A stretch of 62,484 nucleotides of DNA, the filler included, from Myxococcota bacterium (GTDB taxonomy: Bacteria; Myxococcota_C; UBA6777), in NCBI GenBank assembly GCA_023150835.1. It is 3 parts of 3 records of this genome, joined end to end, with 100 filler letters (N's around TTAATTAATTAA, not from the genome) between each part and the next. Parts side by side here need not be neighbours in the genome. Positions count along the whole stretch, not along the records: positions 30,049 to 59,974 come from JAKLKB010000081.1; 2 more parts are not named here. One strand, given 5' to 3'. Within the stretch, counting starts at the first letter, position 1. Each line of letters opens with the position of its first letter. The notes below the pieces were generated by a model. That model made no database searches and was not told the origin of the DNA. It saw only the letters and a program-made list of their open reading frames with translations. Shown one piece after another: positions 44,505-51,914 of this stretch. The position numbers and the translations under genes are program-made.

Positions 44505-44632
44505 GGGTGCGTGTATCCCCATCCGTAGAGTGTACAAATAGCCAAATTGGTTAGGCATCAGTCGGTTAAACTGAAGAATGCAGGTTCGATCCCTGCTTTG
44601 TAAATCCACTCTACAAACTTGTATATGCACCC
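44505..44632 (+). ncRNA. tRNA-like ncRNA 1 (Asn-GUU-like cloverleaf within extended bulged terminal stem); candidate Y-like RNA
   Basis: Cloverleaf 44532-44604: TACAAA/TTTGTA, D arm GCC-AAATTGGTTA-GGC, anticodon arm TCAGT-CGGTTAA-ACTGA, T arm GCAGG-TTCGATC-CCTGC. Extra helices GTAGAGTG/CACTCTAC and GGGTGCGTGTA/TATATGCACCC, then a T10 run. Confidence 0.8.
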
Positions 44633-44651
44633 TTTTTTTTTTCGTGTTGTG

Positions 44652-44772
44652 GCGTGTGTTCTCACCCGTCAGCGTGTACAAATAGCTCACTTGGTAGAGC
44701 GACAGACTGATTCTCTGTAGGCAGCAGGTTCGATCCCTGTTTTGTAAACACACGCCGCGAACTCGCACACTC
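44652..44772 (+). ncRNA. tRNA-like ncRNA 2 (Ile-GAU-like cloverleaf within extended bulged terminal stem); candidate Y-like RNA
   Basis: Cloverleaf 44676-44748: TACAAA/TTTGTA, GCTC-ACTTGGTA-GAGC, ACAGA-CTGATTC-TCTGT, GCAGG-TTCGATC-CCTGT. Extra helices GCGTG/CACGC and GTGTG/CACAC. Confidence 0.8.
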
Positions 44773-44784
44773 CCTCCTTTTCTC

Positions 44785-44822
44785 AACCCCTTCTGTTCGA
44801 TGGAATAGAAGGGGTTTTTTTT
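44785..44822 (+). terminator. Rho-independent terminator after the tRNA-like pair
   Basis: AACCCCTTCTGTTC-gatg-GAATAGAAGGGGTT hairpin running into a T8 tract. Confidence 0.85.
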
Positions 44823-44981
44823 GCTGTTGGCATCTTTGCGTTGTATCTGCTACAAAGGCGCGACACAAAAGTACAAAGCCTTTCTCGCGCAAGCATCTTT
44901 TGTGGATGAATTCGGATAGATGGGCATCGCAGCGTTGCGATGATACTACGGGAGAGGTGAAAACAAAGGAGAGGTGGAAGC

Positions 44982-47767: not shown

Positions 47768-48604
47768 ATGTCCGCCACCCGAAAGAAGAAGACGATGCGC
47801 ATCCTCGATATCTCTGCCGAACCCATCGACGCGATCCCTTACCAGCTTGTCGCTTCCCAAGAGATGCGTGCAAAAGGCGCGGCTTCCGTGGTGTCTGCGC
47901 GATTTCCGATCTTTGAAGGGCGGGTTGATGCTTTGCCCGAAGAACTCGATGCTTTGGTGCTTGCCTCCGATCTGCAAGGCCAGATCGATGGCGCACTGAT
48001 GGGGCTATCCGTTCCCGCTTGGTTAGAATTGTTTTTGGGATTGTATTTTGAGGCGTGTTTGGCAGCGCGTGTGGGTGTGATCTTGGGCGGTGATCTGTTT
48101 TCTTTGCCGACAAAACGCGGTGGCTTGGGCGATGTGCGCGAGGTTTGGTCGGCCTTCCAACACCGTTTTCGATGGGTGGCCGGCGTATTGGGAAACCACG
48201 ATCAGATCGGTTCTCGCCGCACAGAGATGCAAGCATTTCAGCACAAGCGCGGGATCTTCCTTTTCGACGGCCATTCTTCCAAAGTGGATGGCTTGCATCT
48301 TGCGGGCATCTCGGGTGTAATCGGGCGTGCAGAGAAGCCCAATTGCCGCGAAGCCACCGATTATCTGGCTTGCTTGACGCGACTTTTGCCCCAACGCCCC
48401 GATATCTTGATCTTGCACGAGCCTCCCGACTTTCCGTCCGAAGGCTTCCCGGGGCGTGTCGCTGTGCGTGAGGCGCTGGAATGTGGAGCCGCTACGTTGG
48501 TGTGCTGTGGACATCGCCATTGGCCCGAGCCTTTGCGCGAACTAACCAACGGCACGCAAGTACTCAACTGCGAAGGCCGCATCGTGATCTTGCGCTCTGC
48601 GTAA
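47768..48604 (+). CDS. Calcineurin-like metallophosphoesterase
   Basis: LASDLQG, GGDLF, GNHD, LILHEPP, CGHRH. Confidence 0.85.
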   Translation: MSATRKKKTMRILDISAEPIDAIPYQLVASQEMRAKGAASVVSARFPIFEGRVDALPEELDALVLASDLQGQIDGALMGLSVPAWLELFLGLYFEACLAARVGVILGGDLFSLPTKRGGLGDVREVWSAFQHRFRWVAGVLGNHDQIGSRRTEMQAFQHKRGIFLFDGHSSKVDGLHLAGISGVIGRAEKPNCREATDYLACLTRLLPQRPDILILHEPPDFPSEGFPGRVAVREALECGAATLVCCGHRHWPEPLRELTNGTQVLNCEGRIVILRSA

Positions 48605-48640
48605 TTTTTAGGATTGTCGAGAATTGAAAAGGAGAGAGGG

Positions 48641-50554
48641 ATGACAGAACTTCGCGAAGAAGACCGGCGTTTGGGGATGTTGAACAGCTTGTTGACGACG
48701 CCTCACCGCGAATTGATGCCGTTATGGGATCTGCATCAAAAGCTGTGTGAAGGTGATCCGCTGTTTTATGCGCACCTTGCGGCATGGTATCAAGAGCATG
48801 GCGAAGTCCGCGATCACAAGGAGCTTTTTGTTGCGACGTTGTGCCTGAGTGAGTTTGCAGGTCATCGCGATGCTGGTTTGGGCATGCTGTGGGCGTTGCC
48901 TCCTTACCAAGTGGCCCGATTGATCGATATGATCAAGGGTCAAGTGATCCGCCATCCTGAAGTCTTTGAAGAAGAATGGGCCAAAGACTTTTCTCCTGAA
49001 GAGTTAAAAGCCTTGTCCGAACAGCGCGTCGGACTGGGGCGAAATATTCCACGTTCGATGCGAACAGAGATCGCGCGGTATTTGCGGGCTTTGGAGTCGC
49101 AACGGGCCTCTTTTGAACGGACGATCGTGGGGCAGCGGCACGCACTCAAGCGCTTGTATGCGGGCTTGCGGATCAAGCCGTCATCGCTTGCACAGCAGCT
49201 TTTGTTTGACAACGAGCCACCGATGGAGAGCTTGCCGGGCCAGATCCGCCAGCTCGCCAAGTCGGGTTCGGCGTCCAAAAAAGCAGAGATCATCGAAAAG
49301 TACCGTATCCCCTACCGCATCGCCGTTTCGCTGTTGAGTCGTCGGGAGTTTCCGCGTGTGGTTCCAGCCTTGTTGCGGGTGATGAGCGCGCAAGAAGTGA
49401 TCAACAGCCTAGGCTCGTTGCGTCGTCGTAAACTGCTCGATGATCCGAGCATTGCGGCGTTGGTACAGAAGAAGCTTGGCAAAGCCCAAACCAGCAAACG
49501 TGTCTCGACGATGAAGGCGCAAAAAGCCCTCGAAAAACTCGACTCGATGGAGCTTGAGCGAGAACGTGGCATCACGTTGACGGATATCAAAGAACGCCTC
49601 CAAGAAGTGACCGAAGAGCGTTTGTTGAGCAAAGGTACGATCGATCGATCGACAGCGTTGTTGATCGATAAATCGGCGTCGATGGAGATGGCGTTGGAGG
49701 TTGGACAGCGGATCGGCGCGATGATCGGGCTTTTGTGTTCGCGTGGTTTGTTGGCGTATGCGTTCGACACGATGCCTTATCCGATCAAATCACCTGAAAG
49801 CGATTCGCTCGCAGACTGGCAAAAAGCCTTTCACGGCATCCGAGCAGGCGGGCGAACTTCGATCGGTTCGCCGATCCAATGGATGCGGCGCAAACAACAG
49901 CGCGTCGAGCAGATCATCTTGGTGACGGACGGCGAAGAGAATGCTTCGCCCTATTTTGTCGAAGAATTGCAGGCTTATCAAAAGGAACTGGATATCTATC
50001 CGACGCTGGTGATGGTCAAAGTCGGATCGGATCGGGAATTATTGGAGAGCCGCTGTGAGCGTGCAGGGATCGCGATGGATGTCTACCGATTCAACGGGGA
50101 CTACTACTCGCTGCCCAACTTGATCCCGATGTTGACGCAGCCTTCGCGGGTGGATCTCTTGATGCAGATCCTTGATTACCCGCTACCACAGCGACCTGAT
50201 CCCAAACAAGCCTTGCCTGCACCGCCGTATGAGGAAGCCGCACAAAAAGAGCCTGTGTTGGCGTTGCGGATGCGAGCCTCGGGGCGTTTGTTGTATGCCC
50301 ACGAAGGCGGGCGACACACACCGTTTCATGTTCAATTTGAACCCCTTGTGCGGGTCGGCGATCAGCGGACGGTTGGAAAGATCACATGGCTCGATCGCGA
50401 GATGGTGATGCCGGGTGATTCCTTTCAGTGCGATATCGCCTTGCGTGTGTCTGTGGCGATCTTGCCAGAGGGGACGTTTCAACTGATGGAAGGCAACCAA
50501 GTGATCGGTGAATGTAAGCTGATCAACATCCTTGAAGAAGGAAAGATCGCTTGA
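48641..50554 (+). CDS. TROVE(Ro60)-like helical domain + vWA domain + C-terminal EF-Tu domain III
   Basis: Helical N-part ([12 protein letters not shown]...VRDHKE...[17 protein letters not shown]); v[15 protein letters not shown]...GGRTSIG...[10 protein letters not shown]-terminus EGGRHTPF...EMVMPGD...F.LMEG..VIG matches EF-Tu domain III. vWA and EF-Tu III calls are stronger than the TROVE call. Confidence 0.8.
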
Positions 50555-51267
50555 GGCCAATACCCCGCCTACAAGAGGCTCTGTCCCCTTCTTCTCGGCC
50601 TGTGCGCCGTCTTGATCTGGTGGCTTGTTCGGGCCTGAGTGAAACCGCCTTGCGTTCGTCTTTTTCGGAGATCGAAGCGCTGTACCGCAGCGTGGACGGC
50701 GTGTTATCGGCGGTTTCAAATGGGTTGGATCTGCCCTGCCATCGGGGATGTTCGGCGTGTTGTCGACAAAGTGTCTTCTTGACGCCGATCGAGTTCTTGT
50801 ACGGCTGGCATTGGGCGCAGACGCATCTTGAAGAGGAGACGCTGGAGGAGATCGTGGGGCGAGGGATCGCGTTGTATCACGAACACAAAGCGCTGATCGG
50901 TTCGCTCGAAGAGGCATCGCACCAAAAGCGCGATGCCTTCGAGATCGCACGCGGCTTGCGTTTTGATTGCCCGTATCTTGGGGGAGATGGGGCGTGTCGG
51001 ATCTATCCTGCGCGAGAGCTTTTGGGGCGTTTGTTTGGTTGCAGCTTTCTTTCCGAAGGGGCGTTGTATGCGTGTTCGTTGGTCGAAGCGCATCTGCAAG
51101 GCCGATCGTTGCCCTTTCCTCGCGCCCCACAGATGGCGCAGATGCTTCGCACGTTGCCGTTGTCTTCGCGGCGTCAAGTCTATCCGTATTATCTTTTTCA
51201 TCTGCACCGAGAAAGCGCTTCGCTGGATGCTTTGCCTTGGCTGGTCGAAGAGACGGTAGAAGGCTGA
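50551..51267 (+). CDS. YkgJ/FliB-family CxxxCxxCC cysteine-cluster protein
   Basis: [15 protein letters not shown]...CRIYPAR; TTG start overlaps upstream TGA (true start may be downstream). Confidence 0.8.
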
Positions 51268-51437
51268 TGTGCGAAATCTTGTGTTTGCTGGAGTTCCTTG
51301 GTGGTTCGAAGAATCGTACGGTATCCGAGAGGTGTGTGATCAAGGGCGACACGGTTTGTTGTTTCAGCCCTTTTCTTGGGCAGCCCCCTACGTTTTGCGC
51401 ACATCATGGGCGGGTTTCGTCTTGGTAGGAGTTGGAC

Positions 51438-51914
51438 ATGCAAGAGGTTGTCTTTGCAATAGAGCCCGATCTCAGTCTCGAAGCGTTTGTGGATATCCTC
51501 CATCGATCGACGCTTGCGTTGCGTCGCCCTGTAGCGGATCGCGAATTGATCGCTGGAATGCTCCGACACGCCGATTTGATCGTGACGGCGCGTTTGGACG
51601 GGCAATTGATCGGGGTATCGCGTGCGATATCGGACTTTAGCTATTGTACGTATCTGTCGGATCTTGCGGTGGATCAAGCCCACCAAGGAAAAGGCATCGG
51701 TCGCGTGTTGATCCGCAAAACCCACGAAGCAGCGGGGCTTCACACTTCGCTGATCTTGATCGCGGCCCCAAAAGCCGAGACCTACTACCCACACATCGGT
51801 ATGCGGCCCCACCCCTCTTGCTGGGTCGCCGATCGTCAACCACGCCTGCCTGTGGGGGTTGGAGACTCTGAGGTAGGAAGCGATGGGGTGGAAGGCCGTA
51901 AGGCAGAGCGTTGA
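51438..51914 (+). CDS. GNAT-family N-acetyltransferase
   Basis: [11 protein letters not shown]...[17 protein letters not shown]...YYPHIG. Confidence 0.9.

Follow-up and report, generated by a model that had tools for sequence, protein, structure and literature searches.

A divergent Ro60-like protein with a C-terminal EF-Tu domain III and its probable Y-RNA-like, tRNA-shaped partner RNAs in a Myxococcota bacterium

The stretch of DNA analysed here (the window, 62,484 nucleotides at full length) derives from the genome of a Myxococcota bacterium (GenBank assembly GCA_023150835.1) and carries two tandem tRNA-shaped RNA genes and, 3.9 kb downstream on the same strand, a gene for a Ro60-like protein. 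We read this locus, with a probability of roughly three in four, as a divergent Ro60-type ribonucleoprotein in which the two RNAs are Y-RNA-like partners of the protein. The window consists of three contigs (C13, C14 and C187) joined by N spacers at 29949-30048 and 59975-60074; the studied region lies on contig C14, and window coordinates equal C14 coordinates plus 30048. The source genome comprises 7.56 Mb in 239 contigs and is 93% complete, and its phylum in GTDB holds six species genomes only. For the comparisons below, R1 denotes a covariance model built for the entire RNA (handle plus tRNA-like body), A1 a narrow protein profile and alignment, and A6 a broader one of 43 sequences with viral relatives included. 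The elements of the locus are the following.

44506..44632, + strand: Y-RNA-like gene 1 (R1 match over its full length, 99.5 bits; also called by ARAGORN and the Rfam tRNA model)
44649..44776, + strand: Y-RNA-like gene 2 (R1 match over its full length, 81.7 bits; also called by ARAGORN and the Rfam tRNA model)
44785..44822, + strand: intrinsic-terminator-like hairpin and U run (hairpin at 44785-44816; 14-pair stem, then TTTTTT)
48614..50554, + strand: Ro60-like protein of 646 amino acids from a TTG start, or 637 from ATG 48641, the database form (fold model, Foldseek, profile A6)
48665..49633, + strand: helical (HEAT-like) TROVE-type region, residues ~18-340 (all-helical model; profile A6 alignment)
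49634..50194, + strand: vWA domain with a complete metal-ion-dependent adhesion site (MIDAS; D352, S354, S356, T415, D439) (invariant columns; Pfam vWA_Ro60)
50255..50539, + strand: EF-Tu domain III beta-barrel, residues ~548-642 (match to the genome's own EF-Tu; NCBIfam; Foldseek)

The 646-residue protein is a divergent Ro60-fold protein with a vWA domain and an EF-Tu domain III. An AlphaFold2 model computed from alignment A1 (mean predicted local distance difference test score 86.3, predicted template modelling score 0.72) was compared with known structures by Foldseek, and the first twelve ranks were all occupied by Ro60, Rsr or TROVE structures, including 9nfa, 1yvp, 2nvo and 9l5y, at E-values of 9e-15 to 7.5e-10, template modelling scores of 0.58-0.64 by target length, 515-567 aligned columns and 13-16% identity; EF-Tu chains appear from rank 13 on. 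The five best matches of profile A6 were human Ro60 (9nen, E 1.4e-14), the TROVE entries 9l5y and 9kop (5.6e-12), Xenopus Ro (1yvp, 1.5e-10) and Deinococcus Rsr (2nvo, 1.2e-7), with A6 positions 107-428 aligning with Ro60 residues 137-498 in a colinear manner from the helical repeats through the vWA domain. The broader profile was needed for this, as the narrow profile A1 barely reached Rsr in the PDB (E 0.0085). All five MIDAS residues are invariant in 38 aligned members, and Pfam vWA_Ro60 matches at E 8.9e-6, just below its cut-off. A preceding sequence-only reading of this DNA had proposed a TROVE-like gene with vWA and EF-Tu domain III parts, which profile A6 and the Foldseek comparison of the model bear out.

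The protein belongs to a large family. Among 8000 scored candidates, 2097 proteins are members at E<=0.001, and a further search at this E-value gave 928 representative clusters at 50% identity; nearly all of these proteins are named “hypothetical” and lack a Pfam domain. A core of ~500 residues is 43-51% identical in records titled Planctomycetota, Chloroflexota, Cyanobacteria, Armatimonadota, Desulfobacterales, Spirochaetaceae and Acidobacteriota. PHROGs and PADLOC gave no match to the Ro-like protein, and the ESM Atlas yielded leads only, below 0.9. One relative of 901 residues (P0128) contains a LAGLIDADG intein inside the Ro-like protein (LAGLIDADG_3, E 3.2e-21; Intein_splicing, E 5.8e-10).

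The C-terminal residues ~548-642 share 34% identity over 82 positions with domain III of the EF-Tu encoded in the same genome (E 2e-13). NCBIfam EF-Tu models match this part at E 2.7e-11 and Pfam GTP_EFTU_D3 at E 6.6e-6, just below its cut-off, and the 11 fused proteins aligned all retain the GGRH(T/K/S)P-type loop. As judged from these alignments, the last domain is homologous to EF-Tu domain III. The likeness to EF-Tu extends from this identity and the retained GGRHTPF loop to the EF-Tu chains retrieved in the fold search, but domain III stands here alone, without GTPase domain or domain II, as a C-terminal extension of a Ro60-like protein. In EF-Tu, domain III contacts and holds the T stem of aminoacyl-tRNA. 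The extension is confined to the closest relatives, about 12 proteins of 55-100% identity. No paper on a TROVE-EF-Tu fusion turned up in a literature search, the supplements of the papers cited here lying outside its scope.

The two RNA genes are arranged in tandem, span ~127 nucleotides each, and have the 5' start GUACAAAUAGC in common. Their tRNA-like cores lie at 44531-44608 in RNA 1 (ARAGORN anticodon gtt, “Asn”; Rfam tRNA 52.7 bits) and at 44676-44749 in RNA 2 (anticodon gat, “Ile”; 53.2 bits). Each core is mounted on a handle, in which a closing helix P1 of 10-15 pairs is separated from a helix P2 of 8 bp by an internal loop that is asymmetric and conserved; after P2 come a 4-nucleotide bulge in the 3' strand and, in RNAs 1 and 2, a 6-bp AU-rich acceptor-like stem with a G-A mismatch and then a cloverleaf of D, anticodon and T arms. 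The consensus of the handle reads CGYRCCC(U)AAC at the 5' end, RAGCNUAC leading into the acceptor, GCUU, and, in the 3' strand of the internal loop, an invariant ACU(U/C) followed by GYRCG. A U run trails RNA 1. The RNAs look like a separate transcription unit, because the terminator-like hairpin follows RNA 2; such terminator-like sites, which are consensus matches only, number two in the region versus 1.1 expected in shuffled sequence.

This structure is supported by folding and by covariation. RNA 1 folds on its own at -45.5 kcal/mol (z -5.43), a value reached by none of 200 shuffles, and all three copies in the genome, namely RNA 1, RNA 2 and a further copy on contig C77 (z -4.7), fold alike. 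The consensus structure of the clade of the window RNAs (8 sequences, RNA 2 included) shows compensatory changes at 22 of 37 pairs. In an alignment of 28 sequences, 91.9% of cells are paired under the written structure versus 32-51% when the partner strand is slid by 1-3 columns, and compensatory changes occur at 27 of 38 pairs; the observed values were reached by 0 of 500 shuffles. Outside the tRNA part, P1 covaries at 9 of its 10 pairs and P2 at 7 of its 8. When the 7.56 Mb of the genome were scanned with R1, only RNA 1, RNA 2 and the C77 copy scored above 50 bits (81.7-106.9 bits), while ordinary tRNAs of the genome reached at most 45.6 bits and were each aligned only in part. With only three such matches in a genome of this size, the two window RNAs lie beyond chance. 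Rfam 15, applied at E-value thresholds to the window region and to the related locus L076, matched tRNA only and did not detect the handle RNA. The C77 copy (C77:207-332, also L003:207-332) is the best-scoring one in the genome (106.9 bits), is called “SeC tca” and has a full G1-C72 acceptor; downstream of it lie ordinary metabolic genes (for an amidohydrolase, a Reg_prop protein and PGI), and upstream of it the contig breaks off.

The RNA-protein pair recurs from cyanobacteria to phages. We compared 80 genome loci, the best 80 of 485 confirmed relatives, and a viral set of 55 loci on viral contigs, in which the encoded relatives are 21-47% identical to the query. ARAGORN called tRNA-like genes with an odd acceptor start, (G)UACAAA or UACAUAC, upstream of the gene and on its strand in 18 of the 80 genome loci. 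Full-length R1 matches at E<=0.01 were tallied by hand in 62 of 80; at E<=2e-5 there are 46 such loci, or 44 without L013 and L016, where the sole match is devoid of the handle motifs. The 103 matches at this stricter threshold are placed upstream on the same strand in 87 cases (four of these lack the motifs and are real tRNAs to which the model was misfitted), downstream on that strand in 11, and on the opposite strand in five, all in L051. A scan for the motif pair gave 165 occurrences on the gene strand (60 loci) versus 12 on the other strand, with a background in the source genome of 122 per 15.1 Mb of strand. When six R1-negative loci were searched again with filters off, two of them gave weak matches carrying the motifs; in these two loci, and in L037, motif pairs precede the gene on its own strand. 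In five other whole genomes, all nine R1 matches of at least 50 bits sit at the Ro-like locus.

Within the viral set, a hand tally gave a full-length R1 match of at least 47.9 bits at 27 of 55 loci, in 26 cases on the gene strand. Loci with a protein only 26-28% identical to the query are among them; these keep the helices and the ACUU loop and differ in the 5' loop. Two of the related loci show the following arrangement. The fused orthologue of 57-59% identity (L006/L160) is preceded by three RNAs at 40-386 nucleotides, with nothing in between, and L158, from a genome of the same family, contains two tandem unfused paralogues, each placed after an R1 RNA (70.6 and 39.5 bits) and followed by a protein of ~300 residues, whose family alignment we term A5. 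The proposed link of the RNAs to the TROVE-like gene thus holds, as their pairing recurs across phyla and in viral contigs.

Relatives of the gene also adjoin same-strand tRNA arrays of up to 31 calls in the flanks (L013, L016, L033, L045, L062, L067, L070, L071 and L076), as do 24 viral loci (for example L155, L152 and L153); these array-flanked relatives come from Cyanobacteria, Planctomycetota, Armatimonadota and predicted phage contigs. Nine genome loci and 24 viral loci carry at least five tRNAs, and 197 of 203 tRNAs (genome loci) and 455 of 460 (viral loci) are on the gene strand. The source genome has ~15 clustered, atypical-looking tRNA genes at C34:14045-15662 and two more at C200:510-660, which resemble the array-type tRNAs found beside Ro-like genes elsewhere and are located here on other contigs.

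The closest known counterparts are the Ro60/Rsr proteins with YrlA RNAs of D. radiodurans, Salmonella Typhimurium and M. smegmatis (RF02553). YrlA RNAs were defined as lying within 4 kb of a Ro60 gene on the same strand, with a GNCGAAN0-1G (or GGUCCGA) Ro-binding motif near the 5' end and a tRNA-like domain whose T and D arms flank a closed “acceptor” hairpin, the Ro stem joining at the place of the anticodon stem; cyanobacteria and delta-proteobacteria yielded few of them (Chen et al. 2014, PMC4201824). In the window, 3.84-3.98 kb lie between the ends of the RNAs and the start of the Ro-like gene at 48614, and RNAs and gene are on one strand. Both systems share a protein with TROVE ring and vWA domain, one or several small RNAs within ~4 kb on the same strand, tandem copies, occurrence in phages, 5' and 3' ends paired into a handle with an internal loop, and a tRNA-like second module. 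The Rfam YrlA consensus has, moreover, the same unpaired ACUUG ahead of its closing helix as the handle RNA. They differ in that the handle of the window RNAs joins at the acceptor stem and leaves the anticodon arm intact and the tRNA parts in canonical order, whereas YrlA is permuted and joined at the anticodon position. The window protein is likewise set apart from Ro60/Rsr, being missed by Pfam TROVE and only 13-16% identical to solved Ro60 structures, and the C-terminal EF-Tu domain III is present in the window clade only. Unlike in the rsr-yrlBA-rtcBA operon, RtcB is encoded on contig C120 and not on C14, in keeping with the earlier remark that the window holds no RtcB-type ligase; among 135 related loci, RtcB stands beside the Ro-like gene in one (L069). 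Neither rtcB nor rtcA adjoins the window gene, although no search aimed at RtcA was made.

At seven places in related loci, a full-length handle match encloses an RF02553 match that scores 30.7-42.6 bits and so falls short of the gathering score of 69.

L009:10728-10790: sub-threshold YrlA match within the handle
L007:10342-10455: sub-threshold YrlA match within the handle
L064:5834-5900: sub-threshold YrlA match within the handle
L064:6299-6365: sub-threshold YrlA match within the handle
L062:6136-6192: sub-threshold YrlA match within the handle
L075:6151-6217: sub-threshold YrlA match within the handle
L080:6464-6530: sub-threshold YrlA match within the handle

One locus can therefore bear permuted and canonical-order mimics alike, and such YrlA-type cores on the same handle, together with the shared ACUUG, lead us to read the family as a divergent Ro60-Y RNA branch with a new attachment of the tRNA mimic. 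Phage Ro60 proteins are a second point of reference. The Ro60 dimer of Thermus phage phiLo (PDB 9l5y; Foldseek E 7.5e-10, profile E 5.6e-12) and the jumbo-phage ROT/TROVE proteins (PMC7824862) have the TROVE fold in common with the window protein and come from tRNA-rich phage genomes, whereas the window family is separate and much larger, has its own RNA handle and is accompanied by the ~300-residue partner in most lineages. As to tRNA arrays, the Anabaena array is induced by translational stress, and RNA-processing and translation genes stand beside the so-called L-arrays (PMC8421152). Relatives of the window gene sit 3' of same-strand tRNA arrays in cyanobacteria, Planctomycetota and phages, whereas the window gene itself has no adjoining array. 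The papers on L-arrays, PMC8421152 with its main text among them, are free of the terms “TROVE”, “Ro60” and “tRNA-like”, and a literature search that combined Ro60 or Y RNA with cyanobacteria, Planctomycetes or tRNA arrays, in which supplements were outside the scope, gave nothing beyond the papers cited.

Several observations weigh against a Ro60-type particle with Y-RNA-like partners. Pfam TROVE (PF05731) matches neither the protein nor anything else in its genome (controls were positive in 2 of 14 genomes), nor anything in the six genomes of its GTDB phylum, nor any of the 17 viral homologues scanned. On the side of the RNA, the 5' strand of the handle (CGYRCCC...) is devoid of the GNCGAA or GGUCCGA Ro-binding motif of Chen et al., RF02553 finds no match in window positions 44400-44900 even at E<=10, and RNA 2 alone folds weakly (z -1.39, with 17 of 200 shuffles equal or better). 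In the window, three open reading frames (ORFs) and the terminator-like site separate the RNA genes from the Ro-like gene, and the C77 copy, 206 nucleotides from its contig end, has no Ro-like gene downstream. The comparison itself has a bias, as the 80 genome loci are a non-random sample; 18 of them are without an R1 match at E<=0.01, about eight of these having less than 1 kb of upstream flank. Because R1 was seeded with RNAs chosen beside the gene, its counts within loci are partly circular, for which the whole-genome searches serve as the control.

Both RNAs might instead be ordinary decoding tRNAs, an extra Asn and an extra Ile species, with the paired leader and trailer acting only as a processing signal and with their place near the Ro-like gene owed to a shared mobile tRNA array. 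We consider this highly improbable, even though ARAGORN and Rfam both call the two RNAs tRNAs at ~53 bits, their elbow nucleotides and T loops are canonical, and scaffolded copies across the family have U33 in 29 of 32 cases and a purine at position 37 in 27 of 32. True tRNA arrays are also common at related loci (9 of the 80 genome loci and 24 of the 55 viral ones have at least five tRNAs), and the YrlA of M. smegmatis is cleaved by RNase P and receives CCA (PMC4201824). The acceptor stem speaks against decoding: one and the same AU-rich stem is present in all copies regardless of anticodon, with a G1-A72 or A2-A71 mismatch, and the 5' strand of P2 passes directly into it without an unpaired leader. 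In place of the seven-pair, free-ended acceptor, U33 and purine 37 of a decoding tRNA, the window RNAs have six pairs plus a G-A mismatch with both ends entering P2, and position 33 is G in RNA 1 and position 37 is U in RNA 2. A34 occurs in 8 of 32 scaffolded copies versus 4 of 169 other tRNAs of the same loci and 1 of 58 in the source genome. G+C content is 0.41 and 0.46 for the two RNAs versus 0.51-0.68 for the other ARAGORN calls of the genome, of which only two fall outside this range, at 0.47 each: the C77 copy and, on C73, an odd Gln call. A normal tRNA-Asn(gtt) is present on C59, and cores that are not tRNAs sit on the same handle at other loci. The frequent A34 and the single acceptor stem for all anticodons make it probable that the bodies are not decoders; the “tRNA-Asn” and “tRNA-Ile” calls here, and many similar ones elsewhere, are probably not decoding tRNAs. 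The earlier view of the RNAs as mimics rather than ordinary tRNAs is thus upheld by the evidence from the acceptor stem, G33 and U37, G+C content and the handle. Among the scaffolded copies of L004-L083, those of leucine type retain a long variable arm; in combination with the A34 frequency, it seems that each body goes back to a particular tRNA species and was later released from the constraints of decoding.

The sequence-only reading had gone further and joined the RNAs, Sir2, the phosphoesterase, the TROVE fusion, the YkgJ-like protein and GNAT into one co-evolved system for sensing, decoying or repairing damage to tRNA or EF-Tu. The genes flanking the core are the following.

41682-44327: Ser/Thr kinase of 881 residues that carries SHOCT and FGE-sulfatase domains, immediately before the RNA genes
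44982-46754, + strand: ORF of 590 residues, no family match
46879-47667, + strand: Sir2 (Pfam SIR2, E 7e-40; NCBIfam CobB-type deacylase, E 1.2e-63)
47636-48604, + strand: calcineurin-like phosphoesterase, a weak match (Metallophos, E 4.5e-4, 21.2 bits; cut-off 21.5)
50551-51267, + strand: YkgJ-like Cys-cluster ORF (CxxCxxCC, E 4.6e-4, below cut-off), overlapping the stop of the Ro-like gene
51432-51914, + strand: GNAT (E 2.9e-10)
52125-52892, + strand: ORF of 255 residues, no match in Pfam, NCBIfam, PHROGs or PADLOC
52893-55337, - strand: second kinase gene

As had been described, Sir2, phosphoesterase, TROVE-like, Cys-cluster and GNAT genes and the two tRNA-like RNAs are all present and co-oriented on the + strand. 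They are tightly packed, with the phosphoesterase stop 9-36 nucleotides before the Ro-like start and the YkgJ-like start overlapping the Ro-like stop; the gene order is retained in L004 (99% identical) and L005 (84%), and the phosphoesterase has a weak match to the candidate defence family PADLOC PDC-S10 (E 3.8e-7). A single system built from these parts is nevertheless improbable. By tblastn, Sir2, phosphoesterase, YkgJ-like, GNAT and the ORFs of 590 and 255 residues were recovered in L004 and L005 only, that is, at 2 of 80 loci, both from the same genus, and they are absent beside the equally fused orthologue of 57-59% identity (L006/L160) and beside the L158 paralogues. Among 73 nearest-neighbour ORFs scanned, of 143 picked, none matched SIR2, Metallophos or CxxCxxCC and one matched GNAT. 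NCBIfam places Sir2 among the CobB-type deacylases, and PADLOC gives no match to it. The conserved neighbour elsewhere is a different protein, the ~300-residue A5 protein, found at 40 of 80 genome and 17 of 55 viral loci and absent from the source genome. A lack of co-occurrence in other genomes had been named beforehand as refuting the proposal; the RNA-protein core does recur and the wider gene set does not. A six-gene tRNA damage-response system is accordingly not supported, and Sir2, phosphoesterase, YkgJ-like protein and GNAT look, from their distribution among related loci, like bystanders, genus-specific neighbours outside the conserved unit. Since the orthologue has its RNAs adjoining the gene and lacks these neighbours, the 590-residue ORF, Sir2 and phosphoesterase look like a genus-level insertion between RNAs and gene. 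Two further labels of the sequence-only reading lacked backing: the “SUKH-like” gene beyond GNAT corresponds to the unmatched ORF of 255 residues, and “outer membrane” for the 590-residue ORF found no support in Pfam, NCBIfam, PHROGs or PADLOC.

The A5 protein is encoded mostly downstream and on the same strand (for example L007:8511-9500, L009:8665-9564, L064:9039-9941 and L158:7005-7889, the last on the - strand). Searches of Pfam, PDB, PHROGs, PADLOC and the ESM Atlas gave no match to its family, and no member was found in the source genome at its 93% completeness. Identity of A5 with the phosphoesterase or the YkgJ-like protein of the window was ruled out by hhalign (probabilities of 0.1% and 0.5%), as was the idea that longer Ro-like homologues are A5 fusions (probabilities of at most 1.2%). 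The kinase-SHOCT-FGE-sulfatase gene holds the same place upstream of the RNAs in the 57% identical orthologous locus (L006:3935-6361). In the window, an exact direct repeat of 36 nucleotides (44293-44328 and 44363-44398, 70 nucleotides apart) duplicates the last bases of the kinase ORF before the RNA genes, and a purine-rich tandem repeat of 15/30 nucleotides at 45107-45204 gives the 590-residue ORF a low-complexity stretch rich in Lys, Glu and Asp. The sequence right after the first N spacer is present on 12 contigs, which identifies it as a repeat at contig ends.

How a divergent Ro60-type particle of this kind might work can be outlined by analogy. Ro60 binds Y RNA at the outer surface of its ring and misfolded RNA in the central hole. 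We infer that the RNAs bind the protein: the handle, that is P1, the internal loop with ACU(U/C) and P2, would dock on the Ro-like ring in the manner of a Y RNA stem on Ro60, and the tRNA-shaped body, attached via its acceptor stem, would be displayed to tRNA-binding partners or would gate the ring. The fused EF-Tu domain III may clamp the T arm of the RNA's own body, or that of a substrate tRNA, and the vWA-MIDAS site is likely to recruit a protein partner, in other lineages perhaps the ~300-residue A5 protein. By analogy with Rsr and its Y RNA, the task of such a particle under stress would be the surveillance or degradation of structured RNA that is misfolded or damaged, probably tRNA or another translation RNA. 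The probably non-decoding bodies, the adjoining tRNA arrays and the stress-induced array of Anabaena (PMC8421152), taken together, suggest that tRNA or other translation RNA is monitored during stress or in phage-host conflict.

Not all cores on the handle are tRNA-shaped. The kinds of mimic seen on it are tRNA bodies with many anticodon arms, YrlA-type cores, and the GTPase-associated centre of 23S rRNA (helices 42-44). The last kind is found at five loci, where a handle downstream of the gene holds ~83-96 nucleotides matching large-subunit rRNA positions ~1071-1167; these stretches, from Moorena-type and other loci, score 48-55 bits (E 1e-11 to 1e-13) and align close to the consensus. The rRNA-like stretch lies in each case inside an R1 match of ~210 nucleotides, and a sixth match lies within a tRNA array.

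L064:8867-9078: R1 match with rRNA-like stretch inside
L075:8449-8661: R1 match with rRNA-like stretch inside
L080:9371-9582: R1 match with rRNA-like stretch inside
L083:9276-9485: R1 match with rRNA-like stretch inside
L069:11551-11761: R1 match with rRNA-like stretch inside
L062:3315-3370: sixth rRNA-like match, within a tRNA array

No rRNA-domain mimic on a handle was found in the genome of the window, and no paper joining the GTPase-associated centre or an rRNA mimic with Y RNA or tRNA arrays turned up in a literature search. From the rRNA-like cores it follows that the handle may display mimics of several translation RNAs. A wider proposal, tentative and in our estimate rather unlikely, is that the handle is a general display stand on which bacterial and phage Ro60-like proteins present mimics of translation RNAs as decoys, sensors or tethers. 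If this were true, the targets would be anticodon nucleases and other tRNA-targeting toxins, ligands of the GTPase centre or translation factors, the display would be part of the phage-host conflict or translational-stress response served by tRNA arrays, and the EF-Tu domain III fusion would be a hard-wired tether.

Ro60-Y RNA particles are known from animals and a few bacteria. The locus described here points to a large family missed by the standard models, Pfam TROVE for the protein and Rfam for the RNA. It is unusual in two respects, the intact tRNA body attached at the acceptor stem and the fusion to EF-Tu domain III. The tRNA-like module becomes easier to study in this form, as a full tRNA body hung by its acceptor stem on a Ro handle and available in many anticodon versions, and the domain III fusion is a natural hint at contact between the protein and the tRNA-like body and at an involvement of translation factors or tRNA-binding proteins. 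Finally, the family is tied to the debate on what tRNA arrays do, as its genes recur next to such arrays in cyanobacteria, Planctomycetota and phages.

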